Below, piece after piece: positions 9,168 through 23,144 of a stretch of DNA of 24,617 bases; position 1 is the stretch's first letter, and each line of letters starts with the position of its first letter. The position numbers and the translations under genes are program-made. Under the pieces are notes generated by a model, which was given only the letters and a program-made list of their open reading frames with translations, ran no database searches and was not told the origin of the DNA. Origin of the DNA: Candidatus Methanomethylicia archaeon (GTDB lineage: Archaea > Thermoproteota > Methanomethylicia > Nezhaarchaeales > B40-G2). The stretch spans positions 1 to 24,617 of the forward strand of contig JAPDJI010000035.1 of the NCBI GenBank assembly GCA_029259155.1, written 5' to 3'.

Positions 9168-10001
9168 TTAAGGTGATGCACGCTTATTTAGTAGCTTCGA
9201 ACGTAAATGAAGTATAGCCTCCAACACTCCTCCTCCCACAGCTCTAGCCCTGTCTGAGATCATGTAGCAGTACTCTCTCAACCCTGTCGGGTCGATTTCA
9301 ACTATTTTTTGTCCACGTCTAACTTTAATCCCCTCGTGTAACAGCCCTCTAATGACGCCTTTAATCATGCACCTTATGGGCTCCTCGCCTACTTTGGCTA
9401 TTAAGGAGCCTTCCTCCACATAGTCCCCTATTTCCTTAATAGGTCTAAACTCGCCGTCTGTAGGAGCTCTCAGTACTCTTTCATGCGTTAAGCCTTCAAT
9501 TTCCTCAGGAACACCTGTACTAGCCTCGGCCTCTCCCTCATAGATTACTCTTCCTAGGCTTATTCCTCTCCTAGTCTCGATGACTGCGTGAACATCTTTT
9601 TCGGCCTTAAACCCGGGGCCTAGGCCTATGACTATGGGGGCGTCGCTAATCATAGTACCTAGGTTCCTCCTAGCCATAATGGCGTCGACCACTACGTCGG
9701 GCTTAGCCCAGGATATGAAGCTCCATGCTTCATCAACTAGAACAGGTATTATTTTCAGCTTAAGAGCCTCTAGTGCCTCATGGTAGTCTTCAACCCTCCT
9801 AGCTTCTATGCCCTCAACCACGACTGACCTTGAGTATACGGCCTCCGCGAATGAAGCCAACCTGCGAAGCACAGTGGGTTGATGCTTTTCAAGGATCACC
9901 ACCTTTAGACCCGCCATGAATAGCCTGTGCGCTACACCCGTGCCTAAATCCCCTCCTCCTTTTACCACCACGAGCATTTCTGTAACTTCATCTAGCGCCA
10001 T
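9168..10001 (-). CDS. yqeB: Selenium-dependent molybdenum hydroxylase system protein YqeB (short, EF2563-type)
   Basis: VVKGGGDLGTGVAHRL, RR..SFAEAVY, VVVDAIMARRN, IGLGPGF, VIETRRG..LGRVI, ERVLRAP, lipoyl-like domain and ISDRARAVGGGVLEA. Likely start is ATG 10001, overlapping the mocA end (ORF track extends to 10028). Confidence 0.9.
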   Translation of the reverse strand: MALDEVTEMLVVVKGGGDLGTGVAHRLFMAGLKVVILEKHQPTVLRRLASFAEAVYSRSVVVEGIEARRVEDYHEALEALKLKIIPVLVDEAWSFISWAKPDVVVDAIMARRNLGTMISDAPIVIGLGPGFKAEKDVHAVIETRRGISLGRVIYEGEAEASTGVPEEIEGLTHERVLRAPTDGEFRPIKEIGDYVEEGSLIAKVGEEPIRCMIKGVIRGLLHEGIKVRRGQKIVEIDPTGLREYCYMISDRARAVGGGVLEAILHLRSKLLNKRASP

Positions 10002-10602
10002 GTCCAGCTCTCTCCACGTACCTAGCATAATCCTCGAAGGTGTCTATATCTATTAAAACTTCCTTGGAATGTACCTCAACTAACTTAACCTCGTTGCTGT
10101 GAGCCCTCACCACCTTCCTCAATCCCATGGTTTCCTCGTTTATCTCCTTTACCTCATCGAAGAGAGATCTGTCGATGAGGATGGGGTGTCCGCGTTTACC
10201 TTGAAAGGAAGCTATAAGTATTGGTCCGCCTGACACCTGATATTCCTTAATGAGGGCGTCTATGGGCCTTGAAGTCATTAAGGCGTAGTCGCCCGGCAGG
10301 ATAATCACCGCCTCAGCGGCATCATCTACTGCATGAAGCCCAGCTTTAATAGAAGAACTCATGCCTTCCTCGTAGCGCTCGTTGTATACAAGCTGAAGCT
10401 TACCTGTATCATCTAGTCCTCGAAGAACCTCCCTAACCCTGTCGGCCTCATGTCCAAGAACCACCACGACTTTATCGGCCATAGAATGCAACGCCTCCTT
10501 CGCGACCCTCCTTATCATAGCCTCTCCGTCCACTAAAGCCAATAGCTTATTCTTGGCAAACCTAGTTGATTTACCTGCAGCTAGCACTATTATCGCTATC
10601 AA
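9988..10602 (-). CDS. mocA: Molybdenum cofactor cytidylyltransferase (MocA/YgfJ-like NTP transferase)
   Basis: IVLAAGKSTRF..NKLL, GMSSSIKAGL, LPGD, GKRGHPIL and DIDT motifs; context of an MCD-requiring Xdh-family enzyme. Confidence 0.88.
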   Translation of the reverse strand: MIAIIVLAAGKSTRFAKNKLLALVDGEAMIRRVAKEALHSMADKVVVVLGHEADRVREVLRGLDDTGKLQLVYNERYEEGMSSSIKAGLHAVDDAAEAVIILPGDYALMTSRPIDALIKEYQVSGGPILIASFQGKRGHPILIDRSLFDEVKEINEETMGLRKVVRAHSNEVKLVEVHSKEVLIDIDTFEDYARYVERAGHGAR

Positions 10603-10634
10603 CGCTCCGTCATCGTTGAGAACTTAACTCAAGG

Positions 10635-10646
10635 TTTATATATTAA
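10635..10646. promoter_or_regulatory. Putative bidirectional TATA box between mocA and tfx
   Basis: TTTATATATTAA lies in a 62-nt divergent intergenic region and starts 30 nt before the tfx ATG (leaderless geometry). An adjacent TTGAG-N7-CTCAA inverted repeat is at 10616-10632. Confidence 0.55.
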
Positions 10647-10664
10647 GCTCTCCGGTCATTATCG

Positions 10665-11087
10665 ATGCCTAAACGCTACGGCTTCTTAACTGAACTTCAA
10701 CTAAAGGTTTTAACGCTTAAGTTGAAGAATGGGCTGACTCAAGAGGAGATAGCCAAGCTCTTAAACACGACGAGGGAGAACATAGCTATCATCGAGAGGA
10801 GGGCTAAGCGTAACGTGCAGTTAGCCATGGAGACCGTGATGTATTACAATAGGCTTAGGGCCATCGCTGAGGTCGAAGTTAAGCCTGGTACACACCTAGT
10901 CGAGATACCTAAGCTGATAATTGATGCTGGGGATAAGTTGAACGTGAAGTTGAAGGTCAATTTTACCAAGGTGTACGACGAGATAAAATTCAGGGCAAGG
11001 GGATGTGTCGAAGGGGTCAGGGTTGTTAAACCTTTTGTCATCGCTATTTATAGAGATGGTGAAATAGAGATCATGCCGAAGAAGTAA
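10665..11087 (+). CDS. tfx: Tfx-family DNA-binding transcriptional regulator
   Basis: FLTELQLKVL...GLTQEEIAKLLNTTRENIAIIERRAKRN (sigma-70 region 4-like HTH) followed by the Tfx C-terminal domain (V.PGTHL.EIP..I...GD...VKL). Confidence 0.88.
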   Translation: MPKRYGFLTELQLKVLTLKLKNGLTQEEIAKLLNTTRENIAIIERRAKRNVQLAMETVMYYNRLRAIAEVEVKPGTHLVEIPKLIIDAGDKLNVKLKVNFTKVYDEIKFRARGCVEGVRVVKPFVIAIYRDGEIEIMPKK

Positions 11088-11136
11088 ACATAGTTGTTTA
11101 ACAAAAATTTATAAATTTGTTATCGAACCTGTTTAC
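11084..11136 (+). promoter_or_regulatory. BRE-TATA promoter of the ABC operon flanked by TAAACA/TGTTTA repeats (candidate operator)
   Basis: TAAACA-N4-TGTTTA at 11085-11100, CAAAAA-TTTATAAA at 11102-11115, and a further TGTTTAC at 11130-11136. Confidence 0.6.
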
Positions 11137-11146
11137 GGAGCTACTG

Positions 11147-12094
11147 ATGAGAATTTCGCTCAATTATGTATTATTGATGTTAATTGCGTTAACAGTAGTT
11201 TTGATCCCATCAATCTTCACTATAACTCACTCTAGTGAAGAAGATAACCTACGCATGGCTGTGGAGTTTAACGATCATTCAGCAGCTGCTTGGGTGGCTA
11301 TTGATAAGGGAATATTCGAGGAGCTTGGGCTGAATGTCACCTACCTCGAAACGTTTAGGACAGGACTTGAGCTCAGCGCTGCTATGATGAGGGACGACGT
11401 CGACGTTGCATGGGCCTGCTTGGGCCCTGTAATCATGGCTTACAGCAACGGTTTACCCATAAAGGTGGTTGCGGGCACACACCTACAGGGGTATGCCATC
11501 GTTGCGAGGAGCGAGTTTGAGGAGCCTAGCCAATTAGATGGCGGTGTTCTTGCATGTCCTGGTAAAGGTAGCCCCTGCTACCTATTATTGAAGTTATTCG
11601 TCGAGAGACATGGATTAAACTACACCTTAATGTATCTTAGGCCTGACCTCGCAGTCAATGCTCTGATCACAGGTCAGATCGATGCTGCCGCACTACCTGA
11701 ACACTACGTAACCTTAGCTGTAAGAAGGGGGGAGTGCAGGGTGCTAGCTCAAAGTCAGGATCTATGGCCTAACATGCCTGGGAGCGTCTTAGTTGTAAGA
11801 GAAGACCTTATCGAGGAGAAACCAGAGCTAGTATCAAAGTTAGTTCAAGCTACAATTAAGGCCACATGCCTCATAGAAGATGATTTTGAGGGTTCAGCTA
11901 GCGTCGTAGCTTCCCGCTTAGGGTTAACGTTAGATGAAGCCTTAGAGTCCATGAGCCACCTTGAATACGACGTGAAGGTTGATCTAGCTGAGTATCAGAA
12001 ATACATAGATTTAATGGCTCAGTATGGATGCATACCTCAAAGCTTCAACGCCTCTAACCTCGTCGACCTGAGCTTTCTAGGTGAATCAAGTTGA
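11147..12094 (+). CDS. ABC transporter substrate-binding protein, NitT/TauT/SsuA-like
   Basis: N-terminal hydrophobic anchor; VAIDKGIFEELGLNV, DVDVAW, GQIDAAALPE and VLVVREDLIEEKPELV motifs. ATG 11147 (GGAG upstream) is preferred over TTG 11117, which lies right next to the TATA box. Confidence 0.88.
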   Translation: MRISLNYVLLMLIALTVVLIPSIFTITHSSEEDNLRMAVEFNDHSAAAWVAIDKGIFEELGLNVTYLETFRTGLELSAAMMRDDVDVAWACLGPVIMAYSNGLPIKVVAGTHLQGYAIVARSEFEEPSQLDGGVLACPGKGSPCYLLLKLFVERHGLNYTLMYLRPDLAVNALITGQIDAAALPEHYVTLAVRRGECRVLAQSQDLWPNMPGSVLVVREDLIEEKPELVSKLVQATIKATCLIEDDFEGSASVVASRLGLTLDEALESMSHLEYDVKVDLAEYQKYIDLMAQYGCIPQSFNASNLVDLSFLGESS

Positions 12095-12837
12095 GAGTTA
12101 AGGCTCTAATAGTTCTCTTTGCGGCTTTAACCATGTGGGAGATGGCTATAAGATTCGGTTTTCTCTCCGGCTTCCTCTTCCCATCGATGGTTGACGTGGC
12201 CTATTCTCTCAATAAGTTAATCGTCTCAGGGATCCTAGTAAACCATTACCTGGCTTCGCTAATAAGGGTCCTTGTTGGCTTCACCCTAGGGTCAATCGCT
12301 GGGGTAGCTGTAGGAGTAGCGATGGGATATAGTAGAGTGGTCTACGACTCCACTTTCCTTATACTGACTCTCCTCTATTCCATCCCTGCGGTTGCCTGGA
12401 TACCTTTACTCATAGTTTGGATAGGGCTTAGGGAGCTTTTACCCATAGCCGTGGTCTTCCTATGCTCCTTCGTCCCACTCGTCTTCATCACCCTCACAGG
12501 TGTTAGGGGAGTGGACAGGAACGTGATCAACGTGGCTAAGACTTTGGGGGCTTGTAGGTGGAAGCTAGTGACATCTATCATAATTCCTCAAGCCTTGCCC
12601 TCAATACTATCCGGGTTAAAGGTGGAGATTGGGATGGCTTGGAGGTCGTGCTTCGTGGCTGAGATGGTGGCTATGTCTTCAGGCTTAGGCTTCCTGGCCA
12701 TGGAGGCCAGCAGCATGTTGAGAGTCGATGTAATAATAGTGACGGTCACGGTCTTAGCTGCCTCGAATTACCTTTTCCAAGAGCTCTTTGAGAGGCTTGA
12801 GCTTATGATCACTAAAAGGAGAGGGGATGTTGCCTAA
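12091..12837 (+). CDS. ABC transporter permease, TauC/SsuC-like
   Basis: FPS...ASLIRVLVGF, IPAVAWIPL, EAA-like loop NVAKTLGA, IIPQALPSILSGL and AEMVAMSSGLG; TTGA overlap with the upstream gene. Confidence 0.9.
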   Translation: MRVKALIVLFAALTMWEMAIRFGFLSGFLFPSMVDVAYSLNKLIVSGILVNHYLASLIRVLVGFTLGSIAGVAVGVAMGYSRVVYDSTFLILTLLYSIPAVAWIPLLIVWIGLRELLPIAVVFLCSFVPLVFITLTGVRGVDRNVINVAKTLGACRWKLVTSIIIPQALPSILSGLKVEIGMAWRSCFVAEMVAMSSGLGFLAMEASSMLRVDVIIVTVTVLAASNYLFQELFERLELMITKRRGDVA

Positions 12838-13843
12838 CGTAGAGCTCGTGGAAGTGTGGAACTATGCGCTTAAAGGATTGAACTTTAAAGCTGAACACGG
12901 CTGCTTTACCTTCCTCCTTGGCCCTTCAGGTGCTGGCAAGACCACAGCCTTAAATGTCATGGCAGGCTTGGTTGACTATGAAGGCTCCGTGCTCTTTGAC
13001 GGTAGCCCCGTCGATAAAATTCCTCCTGACAAGAGATGTGTTGGCCTAGTTCCTCAAAACTTAGCACTTTTCTCCCACATGACTGTGGAGGATAACATAG
13101 CTTATGGCTTAAAGCTGAGAAAGCTGCCTAAGAGCGTGGTTAAGGAAAAGGTATTGGAGCTCGCTAAGCTCCTCGACCTTAAACACCTGCTCCACCGTTA
13201 TCCAGGTGCTCTAAGCGGTGGTGAGAGGCAGCGAGTAGCTATTGCTAGGGCTCTAGCCATTAACCCGAGGGTCCTGCTCCTCGATGAACCCTTTAACAAC
13301 CTCGACGCGGCGTCAAGAGAAGTGTTAAAGCTATGGCTAGTCAGCCTACAGAAGGCTCTTAAATTAACGACGATCCTCGTCACCCATGAGGTGAGCGAGC
13401 TTAAGGGGTTGAAAGGAAAAGCAGTAGTGTTGGTTAACGGTAAAGCCGTCGAGGAGGGTCCTCTAGAAAACATCGCGTCTTCACCTCTAGGCCAGAACCT
13501 CATAGGTTTAAACCTATTCAAGTGCGAGGTTTATGAAGCGCTGGGTAACGGTCTAATGAAGGCATCATGCGGTGGGCTTAACGTCGTTCATGAAGGAGGC
13601 CAAGCAAACTTTCTATATATTCCTCCAACAGAGGTGAAGGTCTCAAAGGACCCATTTAAGGGGTTAAACGCGTATCGCGGTGTTATCGTGGGTGTCGAGA
13701 GCCTAGGCTCGGCAATCAAGTTAAAAGTGGCTGTTGGCGACCATATCTTAAGCTCAATTCAAGCTAACTCCTCTGAGGCTCCTAGTCTTGGAGAGGAGGT
13801 ATATGTGAGACTACCTATGAAGTCGGTGAGGGCGTTACGTTGA
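12827..13843 (+). CDS. ABC transporter ATP-binding protein with C-terminal TOBE/OB-like extension
   Basis: GPSGAGKT, VPQ..ALF.HMTV.DNIAYG, LSGGERQR, LLLDEPF and VTHE motifs; about 110-aa beta-rich C-terminal extension. Confidence 0.92.
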   Translation: MLPNVELVEVWNYALKGLNFKAEHGCFTFLLGPSGAGKTTALNVMAGLVDYEGSVLFDGSPVDKIPPDKRCVGLVPQNLALFSHMTVEDNIAYGLKLRKLPKSVVKEKVLELAKLLDLKHLLHRYPGALSGGERQRVAIARALAINPRVLLLDEPFNNLDAASREVLKLWLVSLQKALKLTTILVTHEVSELKGLKGKAVVLVNGKAVEEGPLENIASSPLGQNLIGLNLFKCEVYEALGNGLMKASCGGLNVVHEGGQANFLYIPPTEVKVSKDPFKGLNAYRGVIVGVESLGSAIKLKVAVGDHILSSIQANSSEAPSLGEEVYVRLPMKSVRALR

Positions 13844-14586
13844 ACTGGCTTGACAGGTTGGCTGTAGAAGCCTTCGTTGAGAGGCTTAAGTTACATAGAT
13901 TGGAAGGCTTAGAGGCCAGGTTCATGGTGTTGGGGAAGGATGAAGTGAAGCTTCCTTCCAGCGAGTACTTCCTGATGAGGGGGAGGGAGGTAATAGAGCA
14001 CTGTGAGATCGAGGGGGGCTGTGGACAGGCTTTCACAAGCCATGCGAGAAACTGCGTCTTACCGTTCAGCGAAGTTCCGTTCTTAGACCTATCTTTAGAG
14101 GTTAACAGAGCTTTATTCTACTCAGCGCTCAACGCCTTACTGAACAGGCTGGGGGAGGTTAAAGGTACTCTTCACTGTAAGGGTGTAGAGGCTGAGGCTT
14201 GCGGTGACCTATTAGCTGCGGAGATACGTAAGAGGCTGAGGAAAGATGATGTTGTGCTACATATAGGTTATCAACCTGGCCACGTTAGGGCTTTAGCCAA
14301 GGCTTTTGACAGGCTACTCGTAACAGACATGGATCCCGCTAATATAGGCTCCGTTAAGTTCGGAGTTAAGGTGCTCAGTAGCTCAGAGAACGAGGAAGCT
14401 ATAAGGAGAGCTAGGCTGGTCCTGGTGACGGGTAGTGCAGTGGTGAATGGGACGCTCCACGAAATCATTAACTGGTGCGACCGCTATGCGGCAGAGTGTA
14501 TAATTTATGGCGTTACGGGTAAAGGAGTCGCCAAGCTCCTAAACCTGCCCATTTTCTGTCCATATGCTCGTGATCAAGGTGGGTAG
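13840..14586 (+). CDS. DUF364-like (Rossmann-like, putative metal-chelation) protein
   Basis: GQAFT, RALF.S.LNALL, IGYQPG, VTGSAVVNGT and YGVT motifs; several Cys/His pairs (HC...C, FCPY). Confidence 0.72.
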   Translation: MNWLDRLAVEAFVERLKLHRLEGLEARFMVLGKDEVKLPSSEYFLMRGREVIEHCEIEGGCGQAFTSHARNCVLPFSEVPFLDLSLEVNRALFYSALNALLNRLGEVKGTLHCKGVEAEACGDLLAAEIRKRLRKDDVVLHIGYQPGHVRALAKAFDRLLVTDMDPANIGSVKFGVKVLSSSENEEAIRRARLVLVTGSAVVNGTLHEIINWCDRYAAECIIYGVTGKGVAKLLNLPIFCPYARDQGG

Positions 14587-14588
14587 AG

Positions 14589-15104
14589 TTGGAAATGGAA
14601 ATAGTTCTCAAACCTATAGGTTTCATTAGGACTGGGCTAAGCGATGAAGAGGTAAAGGGAAGCTGGCCTGGCGGTGTAGAGGCTGAGATAGAGGTCTTAG
14701 AGGAGTTTAAGGATGCCTTAGAGGGTATCGATGGTTTTTCTCACCTCATCGTTATCTTTTACATGCATAAGGTCACGGAAGAGCAGCGCAGAGTACTCAA
14801 AGCAAGACATAAAAGGTTTATTCAGCGCTATGGCTTCAAGCTTGAGGAACTACCCTTAGTTGGGGTTTTCTGTCTAGACTCGCCTCATAGACCTAATCCC
14901 ATAGGCTTAACGATCGTTGAGCTCATTGAAAGGCGAGGTAGAGTGTTGAAGGTTAAAGGCATGGACGCCTTCGATGGCACCCCAGTCTTAGACATTAAAC
15001 CGTACACACCGAGCAGATGCAAGGTTGACCTAAGGTTTCCGACATGGTACACCAGGTTAATGGAGGAGCTCAAACGTAGAGGTGTAGAGACCGATGAATT
15101 TTAA
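14589..15104 (+). CDS. TrmO/TsaA (YaeB/AF0241, UPF0066)-family SAM-binding beta-barrel protein, single-domain
   Basis: LKPIGFI, F.DALEGIDGFSHLIVIFYMH, GVF...SPHRPNPIGLTIVEL and D.FDGTPVLDIKPY motifs; start TTG 14589 or ATG 14595. Confidence 0.88.
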   Translation: MEMEIVLKPIGFIRTGLSDEEVKGSWPGGVEAEIEVLEEFKDALEGIDGFSHLIVIFYMHKVTEEQRRVLKARHKRFIQRYGFKLEELPLVGVFCLDSPHRPNPIGLTIVELIERRGRVLKVKGMDAFDGTPVLDIKPYTPSRCKVDLRFPTWYTRLMEELKRRGVETDEF

Positions 15105-16326
15105 GCAGCTTAAAGGATCTCTTAGGGTTAAACTTCTTGACTATGTAGAGCTCGAGGAGGTCTATGAAAGGCTGAAGCTTAACGTTAAGCCTTTAGGAGA
15201 GGTAGAGGAGGTAGATGTTCTCGAGGCTTGCGGTAGATACTTAGCCGAGGATGTAGCTGCTCCTTTCGACTCTCCTCTCTTTGACACGGCTCACTTCGAC
15301 GGCTTTGCAGTAAGAAGCTCAGATACTCGAGGCGCCTCGCTTAGTGCACCTGTATTCTTGAAGCTTACTGGTGACGGTAGGTTGGGGGTGGGTGAGGCCT
15401 GCTATGTGCCAACAGGTAGACCTCTTCCAGAGGGCTCAGACGCTTTGATTGAGCTAGAGAAGGTTGAGGTGCTTGAAGACACCGTGGTCATCCGCAGCGA
15501 GGTGAAACCTTGGTTAAACGTTACGAGAAGGGCTTCAGACTTTAAGAAACAGGAGGTGGTGTTTTGTAGTGGTAGAAGGCTTAGGCCGCTGGATGTTAAG
15601 GCTCTTCATGTCTTCGGTCTGAGAAAAATTAAGGTTCATAGGAAGCCCACTATCCTTATCGTTCCCACGGGGACTGAGCTCGTTGAGGATCGTAGGGAAG
15701 ATACCCATAGTCCGCTTGTAAAGCAGGTTTTACTTAAAGCTGGCTTTAAGGCCTTAATTGCTCGTCCCGTTAGGGATGACGTGAACGAGATCGCCGCCAC
15801 GGTGATTAAAGGCCTCGAACGATGCGACGCTGTATTTACGGTCGGTGGGGCTTCAGTGGGGCTTTACGACCATGTGTGGGAGGCGGCCATGAGCATTGGA
15901 GGTAAGCCCTTGGTTAGAGGAATTAAGATGGTTCCTGGCAGGGTGACAAGCTGCGTGGCTGTCGATGGAAAGCCCCTCGTCCTCCTTCCAGGCCATGTTC
16001 AGTCTCTGATCGTCGGCTTGTCCTTCATAGGTATACCAGCGGTGGGCGTGAGTATGATGGGTGTTCCATTAGAACCTAAGCCTACTGGTAAAGTCAAGCT
16101 GACCAGGAGCCTTAGCTTTGGAAGATTCAAGGACTTCAAGAAGGTAATCTTCGTTAAACTGGCTTGGGGAAACGATGTACTCGCTGAGCCGTTAGAGGGG
16201 GATAGTTCTAAGCTAAGCCCCTTAGTGAGAGGAGACGGCTTCACGGTGGTGGAGAAGGGCGTGGAAGCACTGGACACTGGCTCCCTTATTGACCTGTACC
16301 GACCTTACGAGCTCTATGGAGGCTAA
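15094..16326 (+). CDS. moeA: Molybdopterin molybdotransferase MoeA-family protein (divergent)
   Basis: GRYLAEDV.AP.DSP.FD.AHFDGFAV, TG.PLPEG.DA, TG.EL, GG.SVG..D and LPG motifs; 410 aa. Confidence 0.88.
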   Translation: MNFKQLKGSLRVKLLDYVELEEVYERLKLNVKPLGEVEEVDVLEACGRYLAEDVAAPFDSPLFDTAHFDGFAVRSSDTRGASLSAPVFLKLTGDGRLGVGEACYVPTGRPLPEGSDALIELEKVEVLEDTVVIRSEVKPWLNVTRRASDFKKQEVVFCSGRRLRPLDVKALHVFGLRKIKVHRKPTILIVPTGTELVEDRREDTHSPLVKQVLLKAGFKALIARPVRDDVNEIAATVIKGLERCDAVFTVGGASVGLYDHVWEAAMSIGGKPLVRGIKMVPGRVTSCVAVDGKPLVLLPGHVQSLIVGLSFIGIPAVGVSMMGVPLEPKPTGKVKLTRSLSFGRFKDFKKVIFVKLAWGNDVLAEPLEGDSSKLSPLVRGDGFTVVEKGVEALDTGSLIDLYRPYELYGG

Positions 16327-17117
16327 GGTTTAAGTAAACTTAAATGAGGTAGCTTAGCTCCTTTTCGAAGCCCTATTATCTCAGCCATGATGCTTAAAGC
16401 TACCTCCTCAGGCGTATCAGCCCCTAGATCTATGCCTACCGGTGCATAAAGTCTACCCCTAAGATGCTCTAAGTTGAAGCCCTCGCTGCCTAGACGTTCA
16501 AGTAGGAGCTTTGTCTTTCTCTTGCTACCCAATAACCCGATGTAGCTTGGCTCTTGTTTAAGCGCAACCCTTAAAGCTTCATAGTCTCTTTCAGGGTCTC
16601 CGTAAGCTATCACTATGTAATCCGACCTCCCTACCTTAACCTCCCTTAAAGCTTCACTTGGTGGTTTAGCTAGGACGCCAGGCTCTTCAGCAGCCTCGTC
16701 CACTAATATTGCCTCAAACCTTAGCTCCCTGGCGAGCCTAGCTAGCGCTATGCCTACATGACCTACGCCCATGATTACGAGCCTAGGCTTAGGAGTTAAG
16801 ACGTCGATGAAGACTTCAGCTGCACCTCCACATGGAAGTCCAGTGTCTACGCCTTCACCGAAACCAAAGCTATACCTAACGAGCTTGCTAGCCCCTTTCT
16901 TCAACGCCTCTAAGGCCTCCTCCTTAACTAGCTCCTCGAACTTTCCTCCCCCTATTGTCCCCTCCACCTCGCCGTCTTCGGTCACGAGCATCTTAGCTCC
17001 TTCGTCTCTAGGGGCGGAGCCCTCCTTCTTAACCACGATACAGAGAGCCACCTTTTTGCCGCTTGATAAGGCCTCTAAGGCCCTCGATAGTATACGCTCA
17101 ACCATCACCACCACCAT
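16323..17117 (-). CDS. xdhC: XdhC/CoxI-family Moco maturation/insertion factor
   Basis: GSAPRDEGAKM, GTIGGG, GLPCGG, GVGHVG, YIGLLGSKRK and YAPVGIDLGADTPEEVALSIMAEI motifs; alternative start ATG 17105 after GGTGGTGGTG. Confidence 0.93.
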   Translation of the reverse strand: MVVVMVERILSRALEALSSGKKVALCIVVKKEGSAPRDEGAKMLVTEDGEVEGTIGGGKFEELVKEEALEALKKGASKLVRYSFGFGEGVDTGLPCGGAAEVFIDVLTPKPRLVIMGVGHVGIALARLARELRFEAILVDEAAEEPGVLAKPPSEALREVKVGRSDYIVIAYGDPERDYEALRVALKQEPSYIGLLGSKRKTKLLLERLGSEGFNLEHLRGRLYAPVGIDLGADTPEEVALSIMAEIIGLRKGAKLPHLSLLKP

Positions 17118-17166
17118 ATTAATTGAACAGCAACCTACTCAACCGTGGCTCCTACAAGCTAATAAG

Positions 17167-17198
17167 ATTATATATTTTTCAATAGAAAGTTTTTTAAT
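17167..17198. promoter_or_regulatory. Back-to-back BRE-TATA promoters for xdhC (-) and the Mo-hydroxylase operon (+)
   Basis: Minus strand GAAAAA-TATATAAT (17180 to 17167); plus strand GAAAG-TTTTTTAAT (17185-17198). Confidence 0.55.
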
Positions 17199-17233
17199 TG
17201 ATATTGTAGCAAGGCTTGGTTGGATTGATTAGA

Positions 17234-18127
17234 ATGGTGCTTAAACTTCCTCCTTTTGAGTATTTTGAGCCTCATAGCTTGGAGCAAGCCTGCGACCTCC
17301 TATCCAAGTACCGCGGTAAAGCTGCTCTATTAGCTGGAGGCACTAACCTTCTTGTCCAGATGAAGCTTGGTAGGAGGAGGCCTCAAGCTGTCATTAACTT
17401 AAAGCGCATACCTAAGCTTAGCTACGTGGCCCATAGCGATGAGGGTTTGAGGATAGGGGCTTTAACCACGATACGTGAGATCTTGAGGTCCACGGTGGTA
17501 AAGGAGCACTTTACCGCTCTTTGGGAGGCTGCCCAAGTTATGGCCTTCCCCAATATTAGAAACATAGCCACTATAGGCGGAAATATATGCAACGCTGCAC
17601 CTACGGCGGATCTTCCTCCTCCTTTAATGGCGTTAGGCGCACGTGTAGTAGCTAGGAGTAGTCGCGGATTAAGGTCTATAGCTCTCGCGGACTTCTTCCA
17701 AGGACCTAATAAGACCTCCTTGAGCGAGGATGAAGTTCTCGTAGAGGTTTTCATCCCCAACCCTCCTCGAAATACCTCCTCGACCTACCTTAAGCTACCG
17801 TCTAGAACCTTGGAGGACATCTCGGTTGCCGGCGTGGCGGTTTCGCTTAGCTTGAACGGCCAGGAGGTCAAGAGCTTGAGGCTTGCTTTAGGAGCTGTGG
17901 CGCCTGTACCTATCTTGGTTAGAGAGGCTGAGGAGATTGCGAAGGGGAGGAGGGTTGATCAACAGCTTATAGATGAAGTGGCTGAGGAAGCTTCAAGGAA
18001 AGTAAATCCTCCTAAAAGCGAGTTATGGGATTTTCGCGCCCCTGCGGAGTATCGCAGGGAGGTGGTCAAGGTATTGACGAAGAGAGCTTTAAGAAAAGTA
18101 TTGGGGTCCTTGGGGTGGTCTGGGTGA
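17234..18127 (+). CDS. Xanthine dehydrogenase/CoxM-family FAD-binding subunit
   Basis: FEYFEP, LAGGTNL, IGALTT, IRNIATIGGNICNAAP.AD and DFRAPAEYR motifs; no [4Fe-4S] insert; likely start ATG 17234. Confidence 0.93.
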   Translation: MVLKLPPFEYFEPHSLEQACDLLSKYRGKAALLAGGTNLLVQMKLGRRRPQAVINLKRIPKLSYVAHSDEGLRIGALTTIREILRSTVVKEHFTALWEAAQVMAFPNIRNIATIGGNICNAAPTADLPPPLMALGARVVARSSRGLRSIALADFFQGPNKTSLSEDEVLVEVFIPNPPRNTSSTYLKLPSRTLEDISVAGVAVSLSLNGQEVKSLRLALGAVAPVPILVREAEEIAKGRRVDQQLIDEVAEEASRKVNPPKSELWDFRAPAEYRREVVKVLTKRALRKVLGSLGWSG

Positions 18128-18594
18128 AGAAGGCCATTAAGCTGAAGGTAAATGGTGAAGTTAAGGAGTTAGAGGTGGAGCCTTGGAAGACTCTCCTCGA
18201 GGTTTTACGGGAGGATCTAGGCTTGACCAGCGTTAAGGAGGGCTGCGGGACAGGTGATTGTGGGTCATGCACGGTTATACTTAACGGTAAGGCGGTGAAC
18301 TCCTGCCTAGTCCTAGCTGTGGATGCTGATGGAGGCGAAGTCTTAACTGTTGAAGGGCTATCTGACGGCTCTAAGCTTCATCCTCTACAAGAGGCTTTCA
18401 TTAAGTATGGCGCTATTCAGTGCGGCTTCTGTACGTCAGGCATGATAATGGCGGCTAAAGCTCTACTCGACGAAAACCCTAACCCTACTCCTGAAGAAAT
18501 CAAGGAGGCTTTGAGCGGCAATATCTGTCGCTGTGCAGGTTACTCAAACATAGTTAAGGCTATCTTAGCAGTGGCTAAAGGTGAGATCAAATGA
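18124..18594 (+). CDS. Xanthine dehydrogenase/CoxS-family 2x[2Fe-2S] subunit
   Basis: GCGTGDCGSCTV...NSC and QCGFC...NICRC motifs; likely GTG start at 18124 in a GTGA overlap (the ORF track's extra 33 N-terminal residues overlap the upstream gene). Confidence 0.95.
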   Translation: MKKAIKLKVNGEVKELEVEPWKTLLEVLREDLGLTSVKEGCGTGDCGSCTVILNGKAVNSCLVLAVDADGGEVLTVEGLSDGSKLHPLQEAFIKYGAIQCGFCTSGMIMAAKALLDENPNPTPEEIKEALSGNICRCAGYSNIVKAILAVAKGEIK

Positions 18595-20975
18595 GCAACT
18601 ATAGCTTTGTGGGTAAGCCTACTCCACGGTTGGATGGAGCAGAGAAAGCCACTGGTAGAGCAGTATATGTTTCAGACTTAGAGCTGCCCGGTATGCTATA
18701 CGCCAAGATACTACGTAGCCCTCTACCCCATGCAAGGATTGTAAGCATAGATGTAAGCGAAGCGCAGGCTCTTCCAGGAGTGAAAGCCGTTATAACTGGT
18801 AGGGATACTTTAGGGGTAAGGTATGGCTTCGTTGACACGCCTAGCCTCCCAGCCGACGAGCCTCCATTGGCTGAAGACAAAGTAAGGTATGTTGGTGAAC
18901 CTATTGCCGCAGTGGCGGCGGTTAGCGAGGAAATAGCTGAGAGAGCGTTGAGGTTAATCAAGGTCAAGTATGAGGAGCTTCCTGCGGTATTTGACGCTGA
19001 GGAAGCCATGAAGGAGGGCGCTCCCAAGATACATGAAGTGATCAAGCCCACGGCTCCCTCTTTCTGGCAAGAATGGGGGGTTGCACGCCCTTCGAAGGAA
19101 CAGGTTGTAGTTAATAATGTAGCTTCAACCTGTTTCGTCTCCTATGGCGATGTGGATAAGGGGTTCAAGGAAGCTTACTTGGTCAGGGAGGACGTGTTTA
19201 AGACTAGTCCTCACTCACATTGCTGTATGGAAACCCATGACGTTGTGGCGAGCTATAACCCCACAACGGGCTTCTTGGATGTATGGACCGGCCACATGGG
19301 CTTTCCGATTAAACAGTATTGGCTGGCTAGGACGCTGGGCCTACCAGTTAGCAAGGTGAGGATACGTAGGATCCACATAGGAGGGGTCTTTGGCGGAAAG
19401 ATAGAGCTTCAGCCCCACGAGTTCATAGCTGCTTTCCTATCTAAGAAGCTAGGCAAGCCCGTTAAGATAGTCCTAACTAGGGAAGAGGACTTAGAGTCCT
19501 CTAGGTCTTCACAGCATTTAGCTAAGATATATTTGAAGACAGGGGTGACGAAAGACGGCCTCCTGGTAGCTCAACACGCTAAAGTGATAGGTGACTGCGG
19601 TGCTTACCGCGGCTCAGCACCTGTTTTCATCTTCCTAGCTCACGCCTTCTCTCAGCCCATCTACCACATTCCTAACTATAAGTATGAGGCTTACGCCGTA
19701 TATACCAATAAGCAGGTAAGGGTGCCAAAAAGAGGCCATGGAGCTCCTGAGTTCCGGTTTGCCATGGAGTCTCAGCTTGACATGTTAGCTGAAGAGCTAG
19801 GTATGGATCCTGCGGAGATAAGGCTTAAGAATTTCAGGAAGAAAGGTGACGTGTTACCTAACGGCGATATACTTCATAGCTGTGGGTTAACAGAAGGACT
19901 TCAAAAGCTCGTGGATCGTATAAAGTGGACCGAGAAGAGGCGTAAAGGAAAGGAGGGCGAGAAGGCTTACGGAGTAGGTTTAGGAGTAGCCGCTATGTTT
20001 AATGGCGCCCAGTACTATCCTTTTGGGAGTACCGCGGTAGTTAGGCTAAACGAAGATGGTAAAGCGGTGGTCTTCACAGGTGCTGCTGAGTTCGGACAGG
20101 GCTCCGACACCTTAATGGCGCAGATAACCGCTGAGACCCTAGGCTTACGCCTAAACGACGTTATAGTGATCTCCGGCGACTCTGTGCTCTGTCCCATTGA
20201 CATGCACAACTGGCTAAGCGGGGGCACCTTTGTCTCAGGAAGGGCAGTGAAGCTGGCTGCTGAGGATGCTAAACGACAGCTCCTCGAGGTTGCAGCCGAG
20301 ATGCTGGAGGCCAGCCCCGAGGACCTTGAAGTGAAGGAGGGCTGGGTTCGTGTTAAAGGCCAACCTGAACGTGGCATTACTGTATCTCAGGCGGTTAGAA
20401 GGCATATCTTGACTAGAGGGGGTAAACAGATCGTTGGGGTCGGGCATACTAAAGCAATACCCGACGACCCAAGCGTTAACTGGTATCCTAGTCTCCATAC
20501 CGCTCGTGGCCGCTTCACAGGAGCCTATAGCTTTACCGTGGCTGGCGCAGAAGTAGAAGTGGACATAGCGACAGGCAAGGTGAGAGTTTTAAAGGTCACC
20601 GTAGCCCACGACTGTGGTTTTCCCATCAATCCTCAGATGGTAGAGGCCCAGGTAGAAGGTCAAGTAGCCATGGGGATAGGTCAAGCGCTGTTTGAAGAGC
20701 TCGCTACTTCAAGACATGGCAGGGTGCTTAATCGCACCCTCGCGGACTACAAGGTCGCTAGGTTTACCGACATGCCTGAAGTGGAAACCGTTCACGTAAT
20801 CACCGTCGACCCGAACGGCCCCTTCGGTGGCAAGGAGGTTGGTGAGGGTGTACTAGGGGCTCTCCCAGCGGCGATAGCTAATGCTGTTGCTAACGCCATA
20901 GGGGCATGGATCAAGGAGATACCTATGAGGCCTTATACAGTGCTGAAGGCTATTAAGGAGCGTTCACGTAGCTAG
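18591..20975 (+). CDS. Xanthine dehydrogenase-family molybdopterin-binding large subunit (4-hydroxybenzoyl-CoA reductase alpha-like motifs)
   Basis: DG.EKATG.A.Y..D, RSP.PHARI, DKVRYVGEP, GGVFGGK, RGHG, EFGQG, GQVAMGIGQAL.E and GPFGGKEVGE motifs; ATGA overlap with the Fe-S subunit. Confidence 0.93.
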   Translation: MSNYSFVGKPTPRLDGAEKATGRAVYVSDLELPGMLYAKILRSPLPHARIVSIDVSEAQALPGVKAVITGRDTLGVRYGFVDTPSLPADEPPLAEDKVRYVGEPIAAVAAVSEEIAERALRLIKVKYEELPAVFDAEEAMKEGAPKIHEVIKPTAPSFWQEWGVARPSKEQVVVNNVASTCFVSYGDVDKGFKEAYLVREDVFKTSPHSHCCMETHDVVASYNPTTGFLDVWTGHMGFPIKQYWLARTLGLPVSKVRIRRIHIGGVFGGKIELQPHEFIAAFLSKKLGKPVKIVLTREEDLESSRSSQHLAKIYLKTGVTKDGLLVAQHAKVIGDCGAYRGSAPVFIFLAHAFSQPIYHIPNYKYEAYAVYTNKQVRVPKRGHGAPEFRFAMESQLDMLAEELGMDPAEIRLKNFRKKGDVLPNGDILHSCGLTEGLQKLVDRIKWTEKRRKGKEGEKAYGVGLGVAAMFNGAQYYPFGSTAVVRLNEDGKAVVFTGAAEFGQGSDTLMAQITAETLGLRLNDVIVISGDSVLCPIDMHNWLSGGTFVSGRAVKLAAEDAKRQLLEVAAEMLEASPEDLEVKEGWVRVKGQPERGITVSQAVRRHILTRGGKQIVGVGHTKAIPDDPSVNWYPSLHTARGRFTGAYSFTVAGAEVEVDIATGKVRVLKVTVAHDCGFPINPQMVEAQVEGQVAMGIGQALFEELATSRHGRVLNRTLADYKVARFTDMPEVETVHVITVDPNGPFGGKEVGEGVLGALPAAIANAVANAIGAWIKEIPMRPYTVLKAIKERSRS

Positions 20976-22723
20976 TCTTCAATTATGAGGGGTACAAGTT
21001 TTCTCTGCTTAACATCGACCAAACCTTTAGGGCAGAGCCTTATTTCTGGCAGCGTTACGAAGGTAATGAAGGCCATCACGTTTAAAGGCTTCTTCAGCTT
21101 AGAGCCTTTGCCTCTAAGGTAGCTATTCATTTCTTTTAACCTCCTCGAGACGCTATCTAGGCTATCAAGTGACATAACTCCAGCTAAGGGCATGGGAAGC
21201 TCATAGACCACTGTCCCTCCATCAACGATAACTATTCCGCCTCTAAGCTCCGCTATCCTATTCGCGGCTATGGACATATCTTCCTCCAGCTTGCCCAACA
21301 CTACCAAGTTGTTTTCGTCAAAGTTTAGGGTTGAGGCTAATCCTCCTACCTCGGCTCCAAACCCCTCCATGATGCCTAAAGCGATCTTTCCTGTTTCCCA
21401 GTGTCGGTCGATAACAGCTACTTTTAGGTAGCCCGGTGGAAGTTTAACTTCGCCTCGCCTTACGGGTAGTTCTTCTATACTTAGTTTATTTATGGCTTCA
21501 TTCATTAACTTCATTACCCTCACCTTCACCTCACCTTCCTTACCGACCTTTATTTTGAAGTCTTCAGGGAGCATAGCTCTACCTACTTTAACAGTGTCAA
21601 AGGCGTATGGAGGATAAGTGATGGGGGCGGCTTCGACTAGAACCTCACCATCCTTAGCCGCTACCTTCCCCTTACTTATGGTAACCCTGACTTTTACTTC
21701 CCTTAGATTCTCAAGTAAGACCAGGTCAGCTTCCTTTCCAGGCCCTATTCCGCCTATTTCATGGTCAAGCCTAAAGCGCCTCGCAGGGTTAATGGTGACC
21801 ATCATAATGGCCCTTACAGGGTCTACGCCTAGCTCAATGGCTTTACGCACTACGTGGTCCATGTAGCCTAGCTCCCTCAAGTCCTCAGGGTCCATGATGT
21901 CAGTAACCAGAGATACTGCACATAGGTTTATGTTTTCCATAATCAAGCCTGGCAATACATTAGCTAGGTCCTGCCTCAGAGAGCCCTCCCTAACCATTAC
22001 ATGTACTCCTAGCCTCGCACGCTCCAATGCCTCATCTGCGTTTATAGCTTCGTGACAGGAGTTGATGCCAGCTGCTACATATGCCTGAAGCTTCATCCCC
22101 TTAGCGCCAGCTGAATGTCCCTCTATGATCTTACCCATCCTTTGAGCAATAGTTATCTTAGTCTCGTAGTCTTTATCGCCTGCAAGCAGCCTAAGCCATC
22201 CTACCACTTCTCCTAATCCTACTACATAGTCCCATCTTAATGCCTCCTCTACCTCCTCAGGCTTCAACGAATGGGTCTCATCGAATAAAGGGTCTTGAGG
22301 GCATACAAGCGGTACTAACATGTACACCTTTATTGGAAGCTGTCTGATCATCTCTGCGAACAACTTGAGGCCTTCAAAGCCCAGTACGTTTGCGAGCTGG
22401 TCTGGCTCAGCGAATAGGGTAGTGGTACCGTGTATCAATGCAGCCTTGGATTGCTCTGCAGGCGTACAGTAAAGATCTATATGGGTGTGAGCATCTATAA
22501 AGCCTGGCACCACGTACATTCCTTCAGCGTCTATGAGCTTTGTCTCACTTCCTACTGTATGGGAAGCGTTAGGGCCCATGTACACGATCTTAGACGCTTT
22601 AATAGCTACATCTATTCCTTCTAATATTTCCCCCGTGTACACGTTTACTAAGGTTCCCTGCTTTACTACAAGGTCTGCTTTGACCTCGCCTAAAGCAGCT
22701 TTAATGGTGAGGGGGTCTAACAT
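20972..22723 (-). CDS. Adenine deaminase-family amidohydrolase (non-canonical active site)
   Basis: PGFIDAHTH, GTTT, GLGEV, EGH, CHE, REGS, TINPA, GPGK.ADLV and adenine-deaminase C-terminal domain (VIDRH, LPMPLAGVMS). ATG 22723 has GAGG upstream; ORF track start is 22741. Confidence 0.85.
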   Translation of the reverse strand: MLDPLTIKAALGEVKADLVVKQGTLVNVYTGEILEGIDVAIKASKIVYMGPNASHTVGSETKLIDAEGMYVVPGFIDAHTHIDLYCTPAEQSKAALIHGTTTLFAEPDQLANVLGFEGLKLFAEMIRQLPIKVYMLVPLVCPQDPLFDETHSLKPEEVEEALRWDYVVGLGEVVGWLRLLAGDKDYETKITIAQRMGKIIEGHSAGAKGMKLQAYVAAGINSCHEAINADEALERARLGVHVMVREGSLRQDLANVLPGLIMENINLCAVSLVTDIMDPEDLRELGYMDHVVRKAIELGVDPVRAIMMVTINPARRFRLDHEIGGIGPGKEADLVLLENLREVKVRVTISKGKVAAKDGEVLVEAAPITYPPYAFDTVKVGRAMLPEDFKIKVGKEGEVKVRVMKLMNEAINKLSIEELPVRRGEVKLPPGYLKVAVIDRHWETGKIALGIMEGFGAEVGGLASTLNFDENNLVVLGKLEEDMSIAANRIAELRGGIVIVDGGTVVYELPMPLAGVMSLDSLDSVSRRLKEMNSYLRGKGSKLKKPLNVMAFITFVTLPEIRLCPKGLVDVKQRKLVPLIIED

Positions 22724-23144
22724 GGTTGGTCCTCTAGGCATTGCGTCTTGTGCTTAATTAATATTATAGCCATCTCGGGCGCCTTAATCTTCGAGGGCTC
22801 TCTGGCTACTTGATATAGGGTTGATAACGTTTTAGCAGCTTCCCGATTGAAACAGTTGTTATGAAAAAATATTAGATCAGGGCTTGAAGCCAAGCATAGT
22901 ATCTGCCTGAACCTCCTCGAGTAGGTATGAGGCAGGGCTAAGTCTCTTAGAAGCTTCACCTAGCTTGTAGGCTGCTCATAACCACGGCGACATTGAGATA
23001 AGGGAGCGATGGCCTTTACGTTGCCTCCTAAAACGTAACCCTGTGTTTAAGAGCGCTTCGCTTTCCTTTATAGCCCTTAATATTCTTATAATTTTCACAA
23101 CATTAAAATACTGGTTTTATCAACAATGAAGGGGTGGTTGTTGG

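Follow-up and report, generated by a model that had tools for sequence, protein, structure and literature searches.

Does a YqeB protein, whose family is named 'selenium-dependent' in NCBIfam, need selenium in order to assist a molybdenum hydroxylase? This question is raised by a stretch of DNA of 24,617 nucleotides (contig JAPDJI010000035.1 of GenBank assembly GCA_029259155.1; hereafter, the window) from a Candidatus Methanomethylicia archaeon of the phylum Thermoproteota, in which a yqeB gene lies within an island that encodes a molybdenum hydroxylase and the proteins for the maturation of its cofactor. Of the routes by which organisms use selenium, its insertion into molybdenum hydroxylases is the one that is least understood. 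The selenium-dependent molybdenum-hydroxylase trait formed by SelD, YqeB and YqeC in Clostridia and Enterococcus was reportedly described in 2008 by Haft & Self and by Zhang et al. Only the joint presence of these three genes is said to mark the selenium-cofactor trait (PMC5029168; PMC9312934) which, among archaea, surveys of 215 archaeal genomes report only from Halobacteriales (PMC4210487; PMC5322559).

The window comprises one entire contig (C20) of an assembly of 1.55 Mb in 47 contigs, with a completeness of 94% and a contamination of 2.6%. Its genes were mapped by means of a listing of open reading frames (ORFs) together with Pfam and NCBIfam scans. A previous interpretation of the letters alone (from here on, the sequence-only reading) had proposed a molybdenum (Mo) hydroxylase system working either with a selenium ligand or with a selenium-independent YqeB. 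The second option is the one that the comparative data favour: we lean, with moderate confidence, towards an archaeal (Thermoproteota) lineage of YqeB that is uncoupled from SelD and YqeC and that, free of selenium, handles the cytosine-dinucleotide form of the molybdenum cofactor (MCD) together with MocA and XdhC.

The yqeB gene and its island

The gene in question is the following:

9168..10028, minus strand: yqeB (TIGR03309, 345 bits against a cut-off of 220; motif ETRRGI at residues 151-156; K241 and C254 retained).

Residues 20-275 of the protein cover positions 1-256 of the 256 of the TIGR03309 model (matur_yqeB), that is, the entire model. The protein probably begins with the second in-frame Met of this ORF, at 10001, which is the boundary given by the sequence-only reading. 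No Pfam family was matched by YqeB at an E value of 0.001, hence neither XdhC model, and a sequence search of the PDB gave no match.

The island is organised as follows: (i) mocA and yqeB, on the minus strand, from 10602 to 9168; (ii) a divergent operon that runs from tfx to moeA on the plus strand (10665-16326); (iii) xdhC, on the minus strand, from 17117 to 16323; (iv) the genes of the flavin (FAD), 2Fe-2S and Mo subunits of the hydroxylase, on the plus strand (17216-20975); and (v) a convergent adenine-deaminase-like gene, from 22741 to 20972. A/T-rich, TATA-like boxes are located 5' of tfx and 5' of the FAD subunit gene. With regard to yqeB, its neighbourhood includes an overlapping mocA, plus xdhC and the three enzyme subunits within 11 kb. 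All the genes named by the sequence-only reading were recovered where it had placed them or close by, from the ORFs and the Pfam and NCBIfam matches; what it had called an amidohydrolase can now be described as adenine-deaminase-like, and two genes beyond those it named, encoding a DUF364 protein and a TrmO/TsaA-like protein, lie within the operon of ATP-binding cassette (ABC) transporter genes and moeA. Its core proposal, a true YqeB in a self-contained island for a Mo hydroxylase and its maturation, is borne out.

Selenium genes in the genome

Neither yqeC nor selD lies in the window, as the sequence-only reading had noticed, and a search of the whole assembly likewise found neither. At a completeness of 94%, absences from this assembly are probable, albeit unproven. 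In particular: (i) YqeC (TIGR03172) had no match in the assembly at an E value of 0.001, with three candidates scored; (ii) no protein of the assembly exceeded the cut-off for SelD (TIGR00476), the best of four matches reaching 90 bits against 125; (iii) SepSecS was not found in the assembly; and (iv) no tRNA-Sec is present among the 28 tRNAs detected by ARAGORN. The selenium-ligated option of the sequence-only reading, which was to be refuted by a genome-wide absence of selD and yqeC, is not supported by these searches.

The three strongest matches to the SelD model are HypE (which reaches 407 bits with the HypE model), ThiL (243 bits) and a paralogue of the AIRS family, while the fourth match reaches 20 bits. 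This paralogue (P0122; contig C5:74097-75131 of this genome, G000, minus strand; L002:1246-2283) scores 145 bits with HypE, 121 bits with ThiL and 90 bits with SelD, all of them below the cut-offs, and has no N-terminal Cys. Homologues occur in 27/29 good-quality relatives, all of them without YqeB. P0122 was rejected as a hidden SelD on both counts: a protein so common in relatives that lack YqeB does not qualify as a replacement of SelD linked to YqeB. The genome contains a single Mo-hydroxylase large subunit (one PF02738 match), which is that of the window.

YqeB with and without its partners in archaea and bacteria

In genomes of the same family, order or class, YqeB never exceeded its cut-off (0/40). 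In a sample of 401 genomes of the phylum, it did so only in this genome and in G365, a genome of another class (88% complete) with neither SelD (best match, 63 bits) nor YqeC. A sample of 301 Bathyarchaeia genomes yielded a YqeB match in 13, over the cut-off in 11. Candidatus Hecatella, with a SelD of 257 bits and a YqeC of 163 bits, is the only Thermoproteota YqeB genome found with all three genes; among the 12 other Bathyarchaeia genomes with YqeB, SelD is over the cut-off in none and YqeC in one (G461). As a whole, SelD is present in 1/15 and YqeC in 2/15 of the Thermoproteota genomes with a YqeB match (1/13 and 2/13 when only YqeBs over the cut-off are counted). The selenium-independent fallback of the sequence-only reading is, in view of the 14/15 genomes without SelD, more general than had been supposed.

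The situation is different in bacteria. A locus search with the single protein returned one Clostridiaceae locus, and an alignment-based search was used for further loci. The best 80 YqeB loci in a species-representative collection are all bacterial, chiefly from Chloroflexota and Bacillota. In the bacteria with the closest YqeBs (the genomes of these best 80 loci plus seven more), SelD is over the cut-off in 82/87 (48/50, 4/5 and 30/32) and YqeC in 53/55 (49/50 and 4/5). An assembly artefact is an unlikely cause of the absence of SelD and YqeC across the archaeal bins, because this absence is uniform over many bins, as opposed to the 82/87 bacterial bins with SelD.

In a tree of 93 YqeBs, the window protein pairs with a 67%-identical protein (support 100*) within a starred clade of nine rows (98*) that includes the YqeB of Candidatus Hecatella orcuttiae (Bathyarchaeia). 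In an approximately unbiased (AU) test, the placement of G365 in the window/Hecatella clade was not rejected, the constrained tree being 58 log-likelihood units better (p-AU 0.94). The Hecatella YqeB, 59% identical to that of the window, is chromosomal, amid archaeal housekeeping genes, with a fragment of a Mo-hydroxylase gene 9 kb away. But Hecatella has SelD, YqeC and an intact ETKRGH motif, as opposed to the window genome, where both genes are lacking and the motif is ETRRGI.

The literature on YqeB, YqeC and selenium, in the text available to us, gives the archaeal trait only from Halobacteriales (PMC4210487; PMC5322559), in agreement with the remark of the sequence-only reading that it had been noted mostly in halophiles, while the supplementary tables of the surveys might list genomes with YqeB only. 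The full trio of selenium-cofactor genes, and YqeB itself, are now extended past the Halobacteriales of the 2013-2015 surveys into Thermoproteota. Genomes with YqeB only are mentioned in general terms for bacteria (PMC5029168; PMC4210487; PMC9312934; PMC5322559), and YqeB or YqeC alone may serve processes unrelated to selenium, as one of these sources puts it (PMC5029168).

Two other archaea deserve mention at this point. Haloferax volcanii, used as a control genome, has YqeC over the cut-off and neither YqeB nor SelD over theirs, so it is another archaeon with uncoupled 'markers'. In the Bathyarchaeia genome G461, DUF364, YqeC, MocA and MoeA are consecutive (locus L127, C28:5500-16566) and YqeB is 5 kb off; no SelD was seen in this genome, and the YqeB motif reads ETNWGH.

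The ET-x-R-G-H motif

The window YqeB retains E, T, R and G of the family motif ET-x-R-G-H and has Ile in place of the final His. Among 202 aligned YqeBs, E151 and G155 are invariant, T152 is found in 200, R154 in 201 and H156 in 197; Ile at position 156 is unique to the window protein, and its closest relative has Pro. The sequence-only reading had read ETRRGI correctly, and the variant that it suspected is a real departure. K241 is likewise invariant or near-invariant across the 202 sequences. Since the ORF is intact and E151, T152, R154, G155 and K241 are all retained, the gene looks functional.

Other archaeal YqeBs read ETKRGH (Hecatella), ETLRGH (G365) and ETNWGH (G461), and those of Bathyarchaeia include seven with ETSEGP or similar and two with ETKPGP or ETKPGL. 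The state of the motif was compared with that of SelD in 100 YqeB rows with known SelD status, the motif being counted as intact when both R154 and H156 are present. Both residues are intact in 81/83 SelD-positive rows and in 5/17 SelD-absent rows (four bacteria and G365); in the SelD-absent archaeal rows, the motif is degenerate in 11/12. When mapped on the tree, SelD status requires eight changes and the motif six. As a separate observation, two YqeBs from Dehalococcoidia (L122 and L124) read ETNNSE at the motif; SelD is present in one of these genomes and none was seen in the other.

Fold of YqeB and its proposed place in cofactor maturation

The AlphaFold2 (AF2) model of YqeB (mean predicted local distance difference test score, pLDDT, 92.4) has an N-terminal Rossmann-like domain with a GGGDLG loop, a C-terminal helix that closes this domain, and a biotinyl/lipoyl-like barrel. 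The barrel (residues 172-248) superposes on the biotinyl domain 1bdo with a template modelling (TM) score of 0.72 and a root-mean-square deviation (rmsd) of 1.3 A, and it also matches 2d5d (Z 9.0). Many Rossmann matches are tied, the XdhC-like chain 3on5_B (Z 9.1) among them. No whole-chain structural relative was found in the PDB: Foldseek gave TM scores of 0.34 or lower, and VIA only tied Rossmann or barrel matches (Z ~9-10). The predicted complex of MocA and YqeB scored below the mark, which counts neither for nor against binding.

The genes for cofactor maturation in the window, in addition to yqeB, are:

9988..10602, minus strand: mocA-like molybdenum cofactor cytidylyltransferase (PF12804, 119 bits; TIGR03310, 159 bits, below the cut-off of 186).
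15094..16326, plus strand: moeA, molybdopterin molybdotransferase (PF03453, PF00994 and PF03454), the last gene of its operon.
16323..17117, minus strand: xdhC-family cofactor chaperone (PF13478, 113 bits; PF02625, 82 bits; N-domain and Rossmann C-domain both present).

The mocA gene overlaps yqeB in the same operon, and its product stands alone (204 aa), with no YqeC-MocA fusion. Among the loci compared, the window MocA is nearest to that of the archaeal relative G005 (48%), and XdhC to those of the archaea G005 and G365 (45-46%). In Bathyarchaeia, 7/10 YqeB loci have MocA as the immediate neighbour of YqeB, and MocA is present in 8/10. At 81 bacterial YqeB loci, the neighbours include XdhC in 40, a large subunit in 30 and MocA in 28. 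Furthermore, in 3/3 long bacterial frames examined, YqeC forms the N-terminal part of a fusion with MocA. Both facts, the adjacency of yqeB and mocA in archaea and the YqeC-MocA fusion in bacteria, point to a YqeB/YqeC pair that would act at the MCD step, i.e., cytidylylation and hand-over.

The three fusions (L138:1228-2589, L139:1123-2505 and L140:1142-2545; Anaerolineales, Chloroflexota and Moorellaceae) are 453-467 aa long, and about a dozen other YqeC matches, in frames of at least 439 aa, may be the same fusion.

The role proposed for YqeB is that of the system-specific MCD chaperones of the XdhC/PaoD type (XdhC of Rhodobacter capsulatus, PaoD of Escherichia coli), which bind the finished cofactor and pass it to the apo-enzyme (PMC2997495). 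The same source discusses the E. coli YqeB as an XdhC-like chaperone or XdhC homologue (PMC2997495). YqeB resembles them in its Rossmann-like domain, with 3on5_B among the tied matches; nevertheless, the window YqeB lacks any Pfam match and carries the additional barrel. A canonical XdhC is also encoded in the window and, hence, YqeB and XdhC are not redundant by sequence.

Proposed function and alternatives

The system could operate as follows. The enzyme belongs to the xanthine-oxidase family and has three subunits (FAD, 2x[2Fe-2S] and Mo-pterin); the supply and insertion of its metal are probably the task of the tfx-ABC-DUF364-TrmO-like-moeA operon. MocA makes the MCD form of the cofactor and XdhC is its usual chaperone. 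YqeB, co-transcribed with MocA, may be a second MCD handler by means of its putative nucleotide-binding Rossmann-like domain and its biotinyl/lipoyl-like barrel, working between MocA, XdhC and the apo-enzyme without selenium; the Mo centre would in that case be an ordinary sulfido or oxo one. Intact YqeBs that persist beside MocA and a hydroxylase without SelD or YqeC argue that the core job of YqeB is not selenium-specific. In any case, YqeB alone is insufficient to annotate a system as 'selenium-dependent'.

A further idea, which we hold only tentatively, is that YqeB has two separable functions: (i) a selenium-blind handling of MCD together with MocA; and (ii) a selenium-specific job of the Arg and His of the motif, which might bind, for instance, selenophosphate or a seleno-intermediate. 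The SelD-less Thermoproteota YqeBs (ETRRGI in the window; ETSEGP, ETKPGP and ETNWGH in Bathyarchaeia) would then be natural 'selenium-blind' variants that mature sulfur- or oxo-type Mo centres in hyperthermophiles. If so, these variants would pinpoint the very residues that decide between selenium and sulfur in molybdenum hydroxylases. The lineage as a whole offers two contrasts that can be tested: the full set of Hecatella versus the present genome, and the intact versus the degenerate motif.

Several facts weigh against a selenium-free YqeB. Some of the absences could be assembly gaps, as this bin is 94% and that of G365 88% complete, and the completeness of the 12 Bathyarchaeia is unreported. 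Hecatella, in the same starred YqeB clade, shows that the lineage can be selenium-linked. Relatives of the same class that lack YqeB have Mo hydroxylases with XdhC, MocA and MoeA, so that YqeB would be an addition to the standard maturation set and not a replacement for any part of it. Regarding the motif, control for kinship leaves four independent contrasts on supported branches (sign test, p = 1, with no power), and because the rows are kin and this test had no power, the link between motif degeneration and SelD loss is a lead and not a result. Nor is the motif a clean marker of SelD, since G365 lacks SelD yet reads ETLRGH, and the bacterium L094 has SelD yet reads ESNRGP. Finally, among the accessory genes YqeB alone has a genetic phenotype, yet its biochemistry is not known in any organism (PMC11448449); the sole genetics on YqeB ties it to the SelD-dependent use of purines in Clostridioides difficile, where growth on xanthine and urate requires yqeB as much as selD, and yqeC is dispensable (PMC11448449).

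Three other explanations must be weighed. An ordinary selenium-dependent system, with selD and yqeC located in sequence that the assembly misses, would fit an assembly that is 94% complete, in 47 contigs and with 2.6% contamination. Unlinked partners are, besides, normal: in Hecatella, of the sister clade, the three genes are on separate contigs or far apart, and they are not co-located in C. difficile either (PMC11448449). Even so, we give this explanation very little credence, since chance would have to account for the absence of both genes from this assembly, from G365 and from 11 or 12 more Bathyarchaeia, when comparable bacterial bins display SelD in the proportion given above; moreover, the assembly yielded neither another selenium gene nor a tRNA-Sec, and the conserved His of the motif has been lost. 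It is somewhat less improbable, yet still unlikely, that selenium is delivered without SelD or YqeC, as selenide or perselenide passed by a sulfur-trafficking enzyme straight to YqeB or XdhC. The intact YqeBs near MocA across SelD-less archaea are compatible with such a route, as is the fact that yqeC is dispensable for the growth of C. difficile on purines (PMC11448449). Nevertheless, both systems tested need SelD: that growth (PMC11448449) and the DOPDH activity of C. sporogenes (10.1101/2025.04.24.650524). The assembly of the present genome yielded no gene specific to selenium, and its only SelD-like candidate is P0122, without the N-terminal Cys and kept in 27/29 relatives that lack YqeB.

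The last explanation holds that YqeB is an inactive relic of a lost selenium trait, and that XdhC and MocA mature the enzyme on their own, as XdhC, MocA and MoeA do in the relatives without YqeB. The loss of a residue present in 197/202 family members, and the degenerate motif across SelD-less archaea, would be expected of a relic. However, the ORF is full-length and intact, scores 345 bits, retains the other near-invariant residues and overlaps mocA in one operon; besides, intact YqeBs with degenerate motifs persist next to mocA in 7/10 Bathyarchaeia loci, which argues that they are under selection. A relic is, on these grounds, highly doubtful. The reading to which we return, i.e., a Thermoproteota YqeB that handles MCD with no selenium, differs from the Clostridia and Enterococcus trait in several respects: SelD and YqeC are lacking, the His of the motif is Ile, the host is archaeal and hyperthermophile-like, and yqeB is accompanied by a set of ABC, DUF364 and Tfx genes. 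Nonetheless, both systems have in common a YqeB over the TIGR03309 cut-off near XdhC, MocA and a hydroxylase of the xanthine-oxidase family, and a neighbour of purine type (adenine-deaminase-like), as occurs in 3/81 bacterial YqeB loci.

The hydroxylase and its possible substrate

The hydroxylase and the gene that follows it are encoded by:

17216..18127, plus strand: FAD-binding subunit (PF00941, 183 bits; PF03450, 80 bits).
18025..18594, plus strand: 2x[2Fe-2S] subunit (PF01799, 117 bits; PF00111).
18591..20975, plus strand: molybdopterin-binding large subunit (PF01315, PF02738 and PF20256; below every NCBIfam cut-off).
20972..22741, minus strand: adenine-deaminase-like amidohydrolase (PF13382, 158 bits; TIGR01178, 414 bits, below the cut-off of 472), convergent with the large subunit gene.

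The xanthine-oxidase family's domains are all present over the Pfam cut-offs: FAD_binding_5 and CO_deh_flav_C; Fer2 and Fer2_2; and Ald_Xan_dh_C, MoCoBD_1 and MoCoBD_2. The ORF of the 2Fe-2S subunit extends about 100 nucleotides upstream into the FAD subunit gene, and its family match begins at residue 36; its true start is probably near 18130, the annotated one being too early.

In the large subunit, the stretch KEVGEG aligns with KEASEG of 4-hydroxybenzoyl-CoA reductase (1rm6), KGIGES of CoxL (8uem) and KGMGES of Qor (1t3q), and its Glu is presumably the catalytic base. The sequence after the GGxFGGK loop reads I-E, while in bovine xanthine dehydrogenase (XDH) a Glu directly follows that Lys, so that the subunit shows no evident purine site of the canonical kind. 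Identity as a canonical XDH was rejected on scores: NF043082, 522 against 780; PRK09970, 496 against 916; TIGR03196, 424 against 784; and Se_dep_XDH (TIGR03311), 315 against 830. The best match of the large subunit in the PDB is the 4-hydroxybenzoyl-CoA reductase of Thauera (1rm6_A, E 1e-122) and its best NCBIfam match is the alpha subunit of this enzyme, TIGR03194. This identity was also rejected, as the three window subunits are below the cut-offs (alpha, TIGR03194, 640 bits against 995; beta, TIGR03195, 154 against 405; gamma, TIGR03193, 167 against 258) and the neighbourhood is purine-like and not benzoyl-CoA-like.

Among its named relatives, those nearest to the large subunit carry the labels 'Thermoprotei archaeon' (86%) and 'Aigarchaeota archaeon' (65%). 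Among the loci compared, the nearest enzyme, from Rokubacteria (49%), also lies beside a YqeB, whereas those of the archaeal relatives and of G365 are at most 36% identical. The YqeBs of the window and of G365 thus serve different enzymes.

As for the substrate, it is perhaps a purine or a related N-heterocycle, a suggestion based on gene context: the adenine-deaminase-like neighbour, the strong adenine-deaminase matches (at least 270 bits) near YqeB in three of the 81 bacterial loci (L057, L084 and L092), and the AllG-, AllH- and FdrA-like genes of G365. The latter genes (L017:15061-18980), of the oxamate carbamoyltransferase type, separate YqeB from the Mo hydroxylase in G365 and point to purine or ureide catabolism in that archaeon.

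The operon divergent from yqeB

The features of the operon upstream of moeA are:

10635..10644, plus strand: putative TATA-like box (TTTATATATT) within the divergent spacer of 62 bp that separates mocA and tfx, 21-30 nucleotides upstream of the ATG of tfx.
10665..11087, plus strand: DNA-binding regulator of the tfx family (TIGR00721, 101.6 bits against a cut-off of 60; PF14601).
11117..12094, plus strand: ABC substrate-binding protein, NMT1/SsuA-like (PF13379, 89 bits).
12091..12837, plus strand: ABC permease (PF00528, 86 bits).
12827..13843, plus strand: ABC ATPase with a TOBE-like C-terminus (PF00005, 112 bits; TOBE_2, 22.5 bits, weak).
13840..14586, plus strand: DUF364 protein (PF04016, 47 bits against a cut-off of 23).
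14589..15104, plus strand: TrmO/TsaA-like (UPF0066) protein (PF01980, 102 bits; TIGR00104, 110 bits against a cut-off of 93), with 2nv4 as its best match in the PDB.

From 12091 on, each stop overlaps or abuts the next start, and this translational coupling with MoeA suggests that the ABC and DUF364 genes may supply metal. DUF364 has been described beside genes for the uptake of molybdate or tungstate, and in Methanococcus maripaludis an operon of modABC and DUF364 shows cofitness with nifH (PMC2954201; 10.1101/2024.03.05.583561). The best NCBIfam match of the ATPase is WtpC (230 bits, below the cut-off of 440), and the nearest solved relatives of the binding protein bind taurine, sulfonates or nitrate.

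The NMT1/SsuA-like importer and DUF364 are, judging from their distribution, a module of its own. Orthologues of the binding protein occur in three relatives of the same order without YqeB (54-55%) and in G365 (52%). In the relative G006 (L116), which has neither Mo hydroxylase nor YqeB, the whole set of binding protein, permease, ATPase and DUF364 is seen again, with a DUF364 39% identical to that of the window. In G365 (L017), the same module stands beside Tfx, a homologue of ModD-like quinolinate phosphoribosyltransferase (QRPTase), MoeA, MocA, YqeB and XdhC. At bacterial YqeB loci, phmmer found the binding protein, the permease and Tfx in 0/81; the same scan was too insensitive for DUF364, which it missed even at the G365 locus.

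Two identities of the ABC genes were considered and rejected. The window importer is not the sole Mo/W importer of the genome, as a canonical WtpABC is encoded on contig C6. Neither do its genes belong to the selenocysteine-assisted organometallic (SAO) system (SaoX, 64 against 300; SaoP, 140 against 295; SaoA, 147 against 360), and the available text of the SAO preprint makes no mention of DUF364 or TrmO. The WtpABC-like transporter is located at G000 C6:81125-83968, on the minus strand (L137:3125-5969), with WtpA at 403 bits against a cut-off of 355 and the WtpB- and WtpC-like proteins below theirs.

The host and the origin of the contig

The sequence-only reading had placed the island in a non-halophilic, probably thermophilic archaeon, and the data agree with it. 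The Lhr helicase encoded in the window has archaeal clusters as its nearest ones, with Thermoproteota as the commonest phylum; a scan of this protein against the genome contigs gave only distant bacterial matches. Type II GAPDH and Tfx are also present on the contig (NCBIfam). Bacterial contamination was rejected by virtue of these three genes and of a GC content (0.491) that is the same as that of the genome; MocA, XdhC and the binding protein, nearest to relatives of the same order, count against it too. Given the identities of MocA (48%) and XdhC (45%) to a same-order relative, and of the binding protein (54-55%) to three of them, we conclude that the Mo-hydroxylase island is native to this archaeon.

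Among 1206 long ORFs of the genome, the median isoelectric point (pI) is 7.2, with 5% below pI 5, and the fraction of the residues I, V, Y, W, R, E and L (IVYWREL) is 0.452, which would correspond to about 88 C by the Zeldovich formula. Because of the neutral median, the few acidic ORFs and the IVYWREL fraction, the host is no halophile and looks like a hyperthermophile.

At the other end of the window, the type II GAPDH gene (314-1345, plus strand) is apparently frameshifted: the ORF at 314-1117 spans positions 3-252 of the 343 of the model, and the missing C-terminal part continues at approximately 1051-1345 in a different frame.

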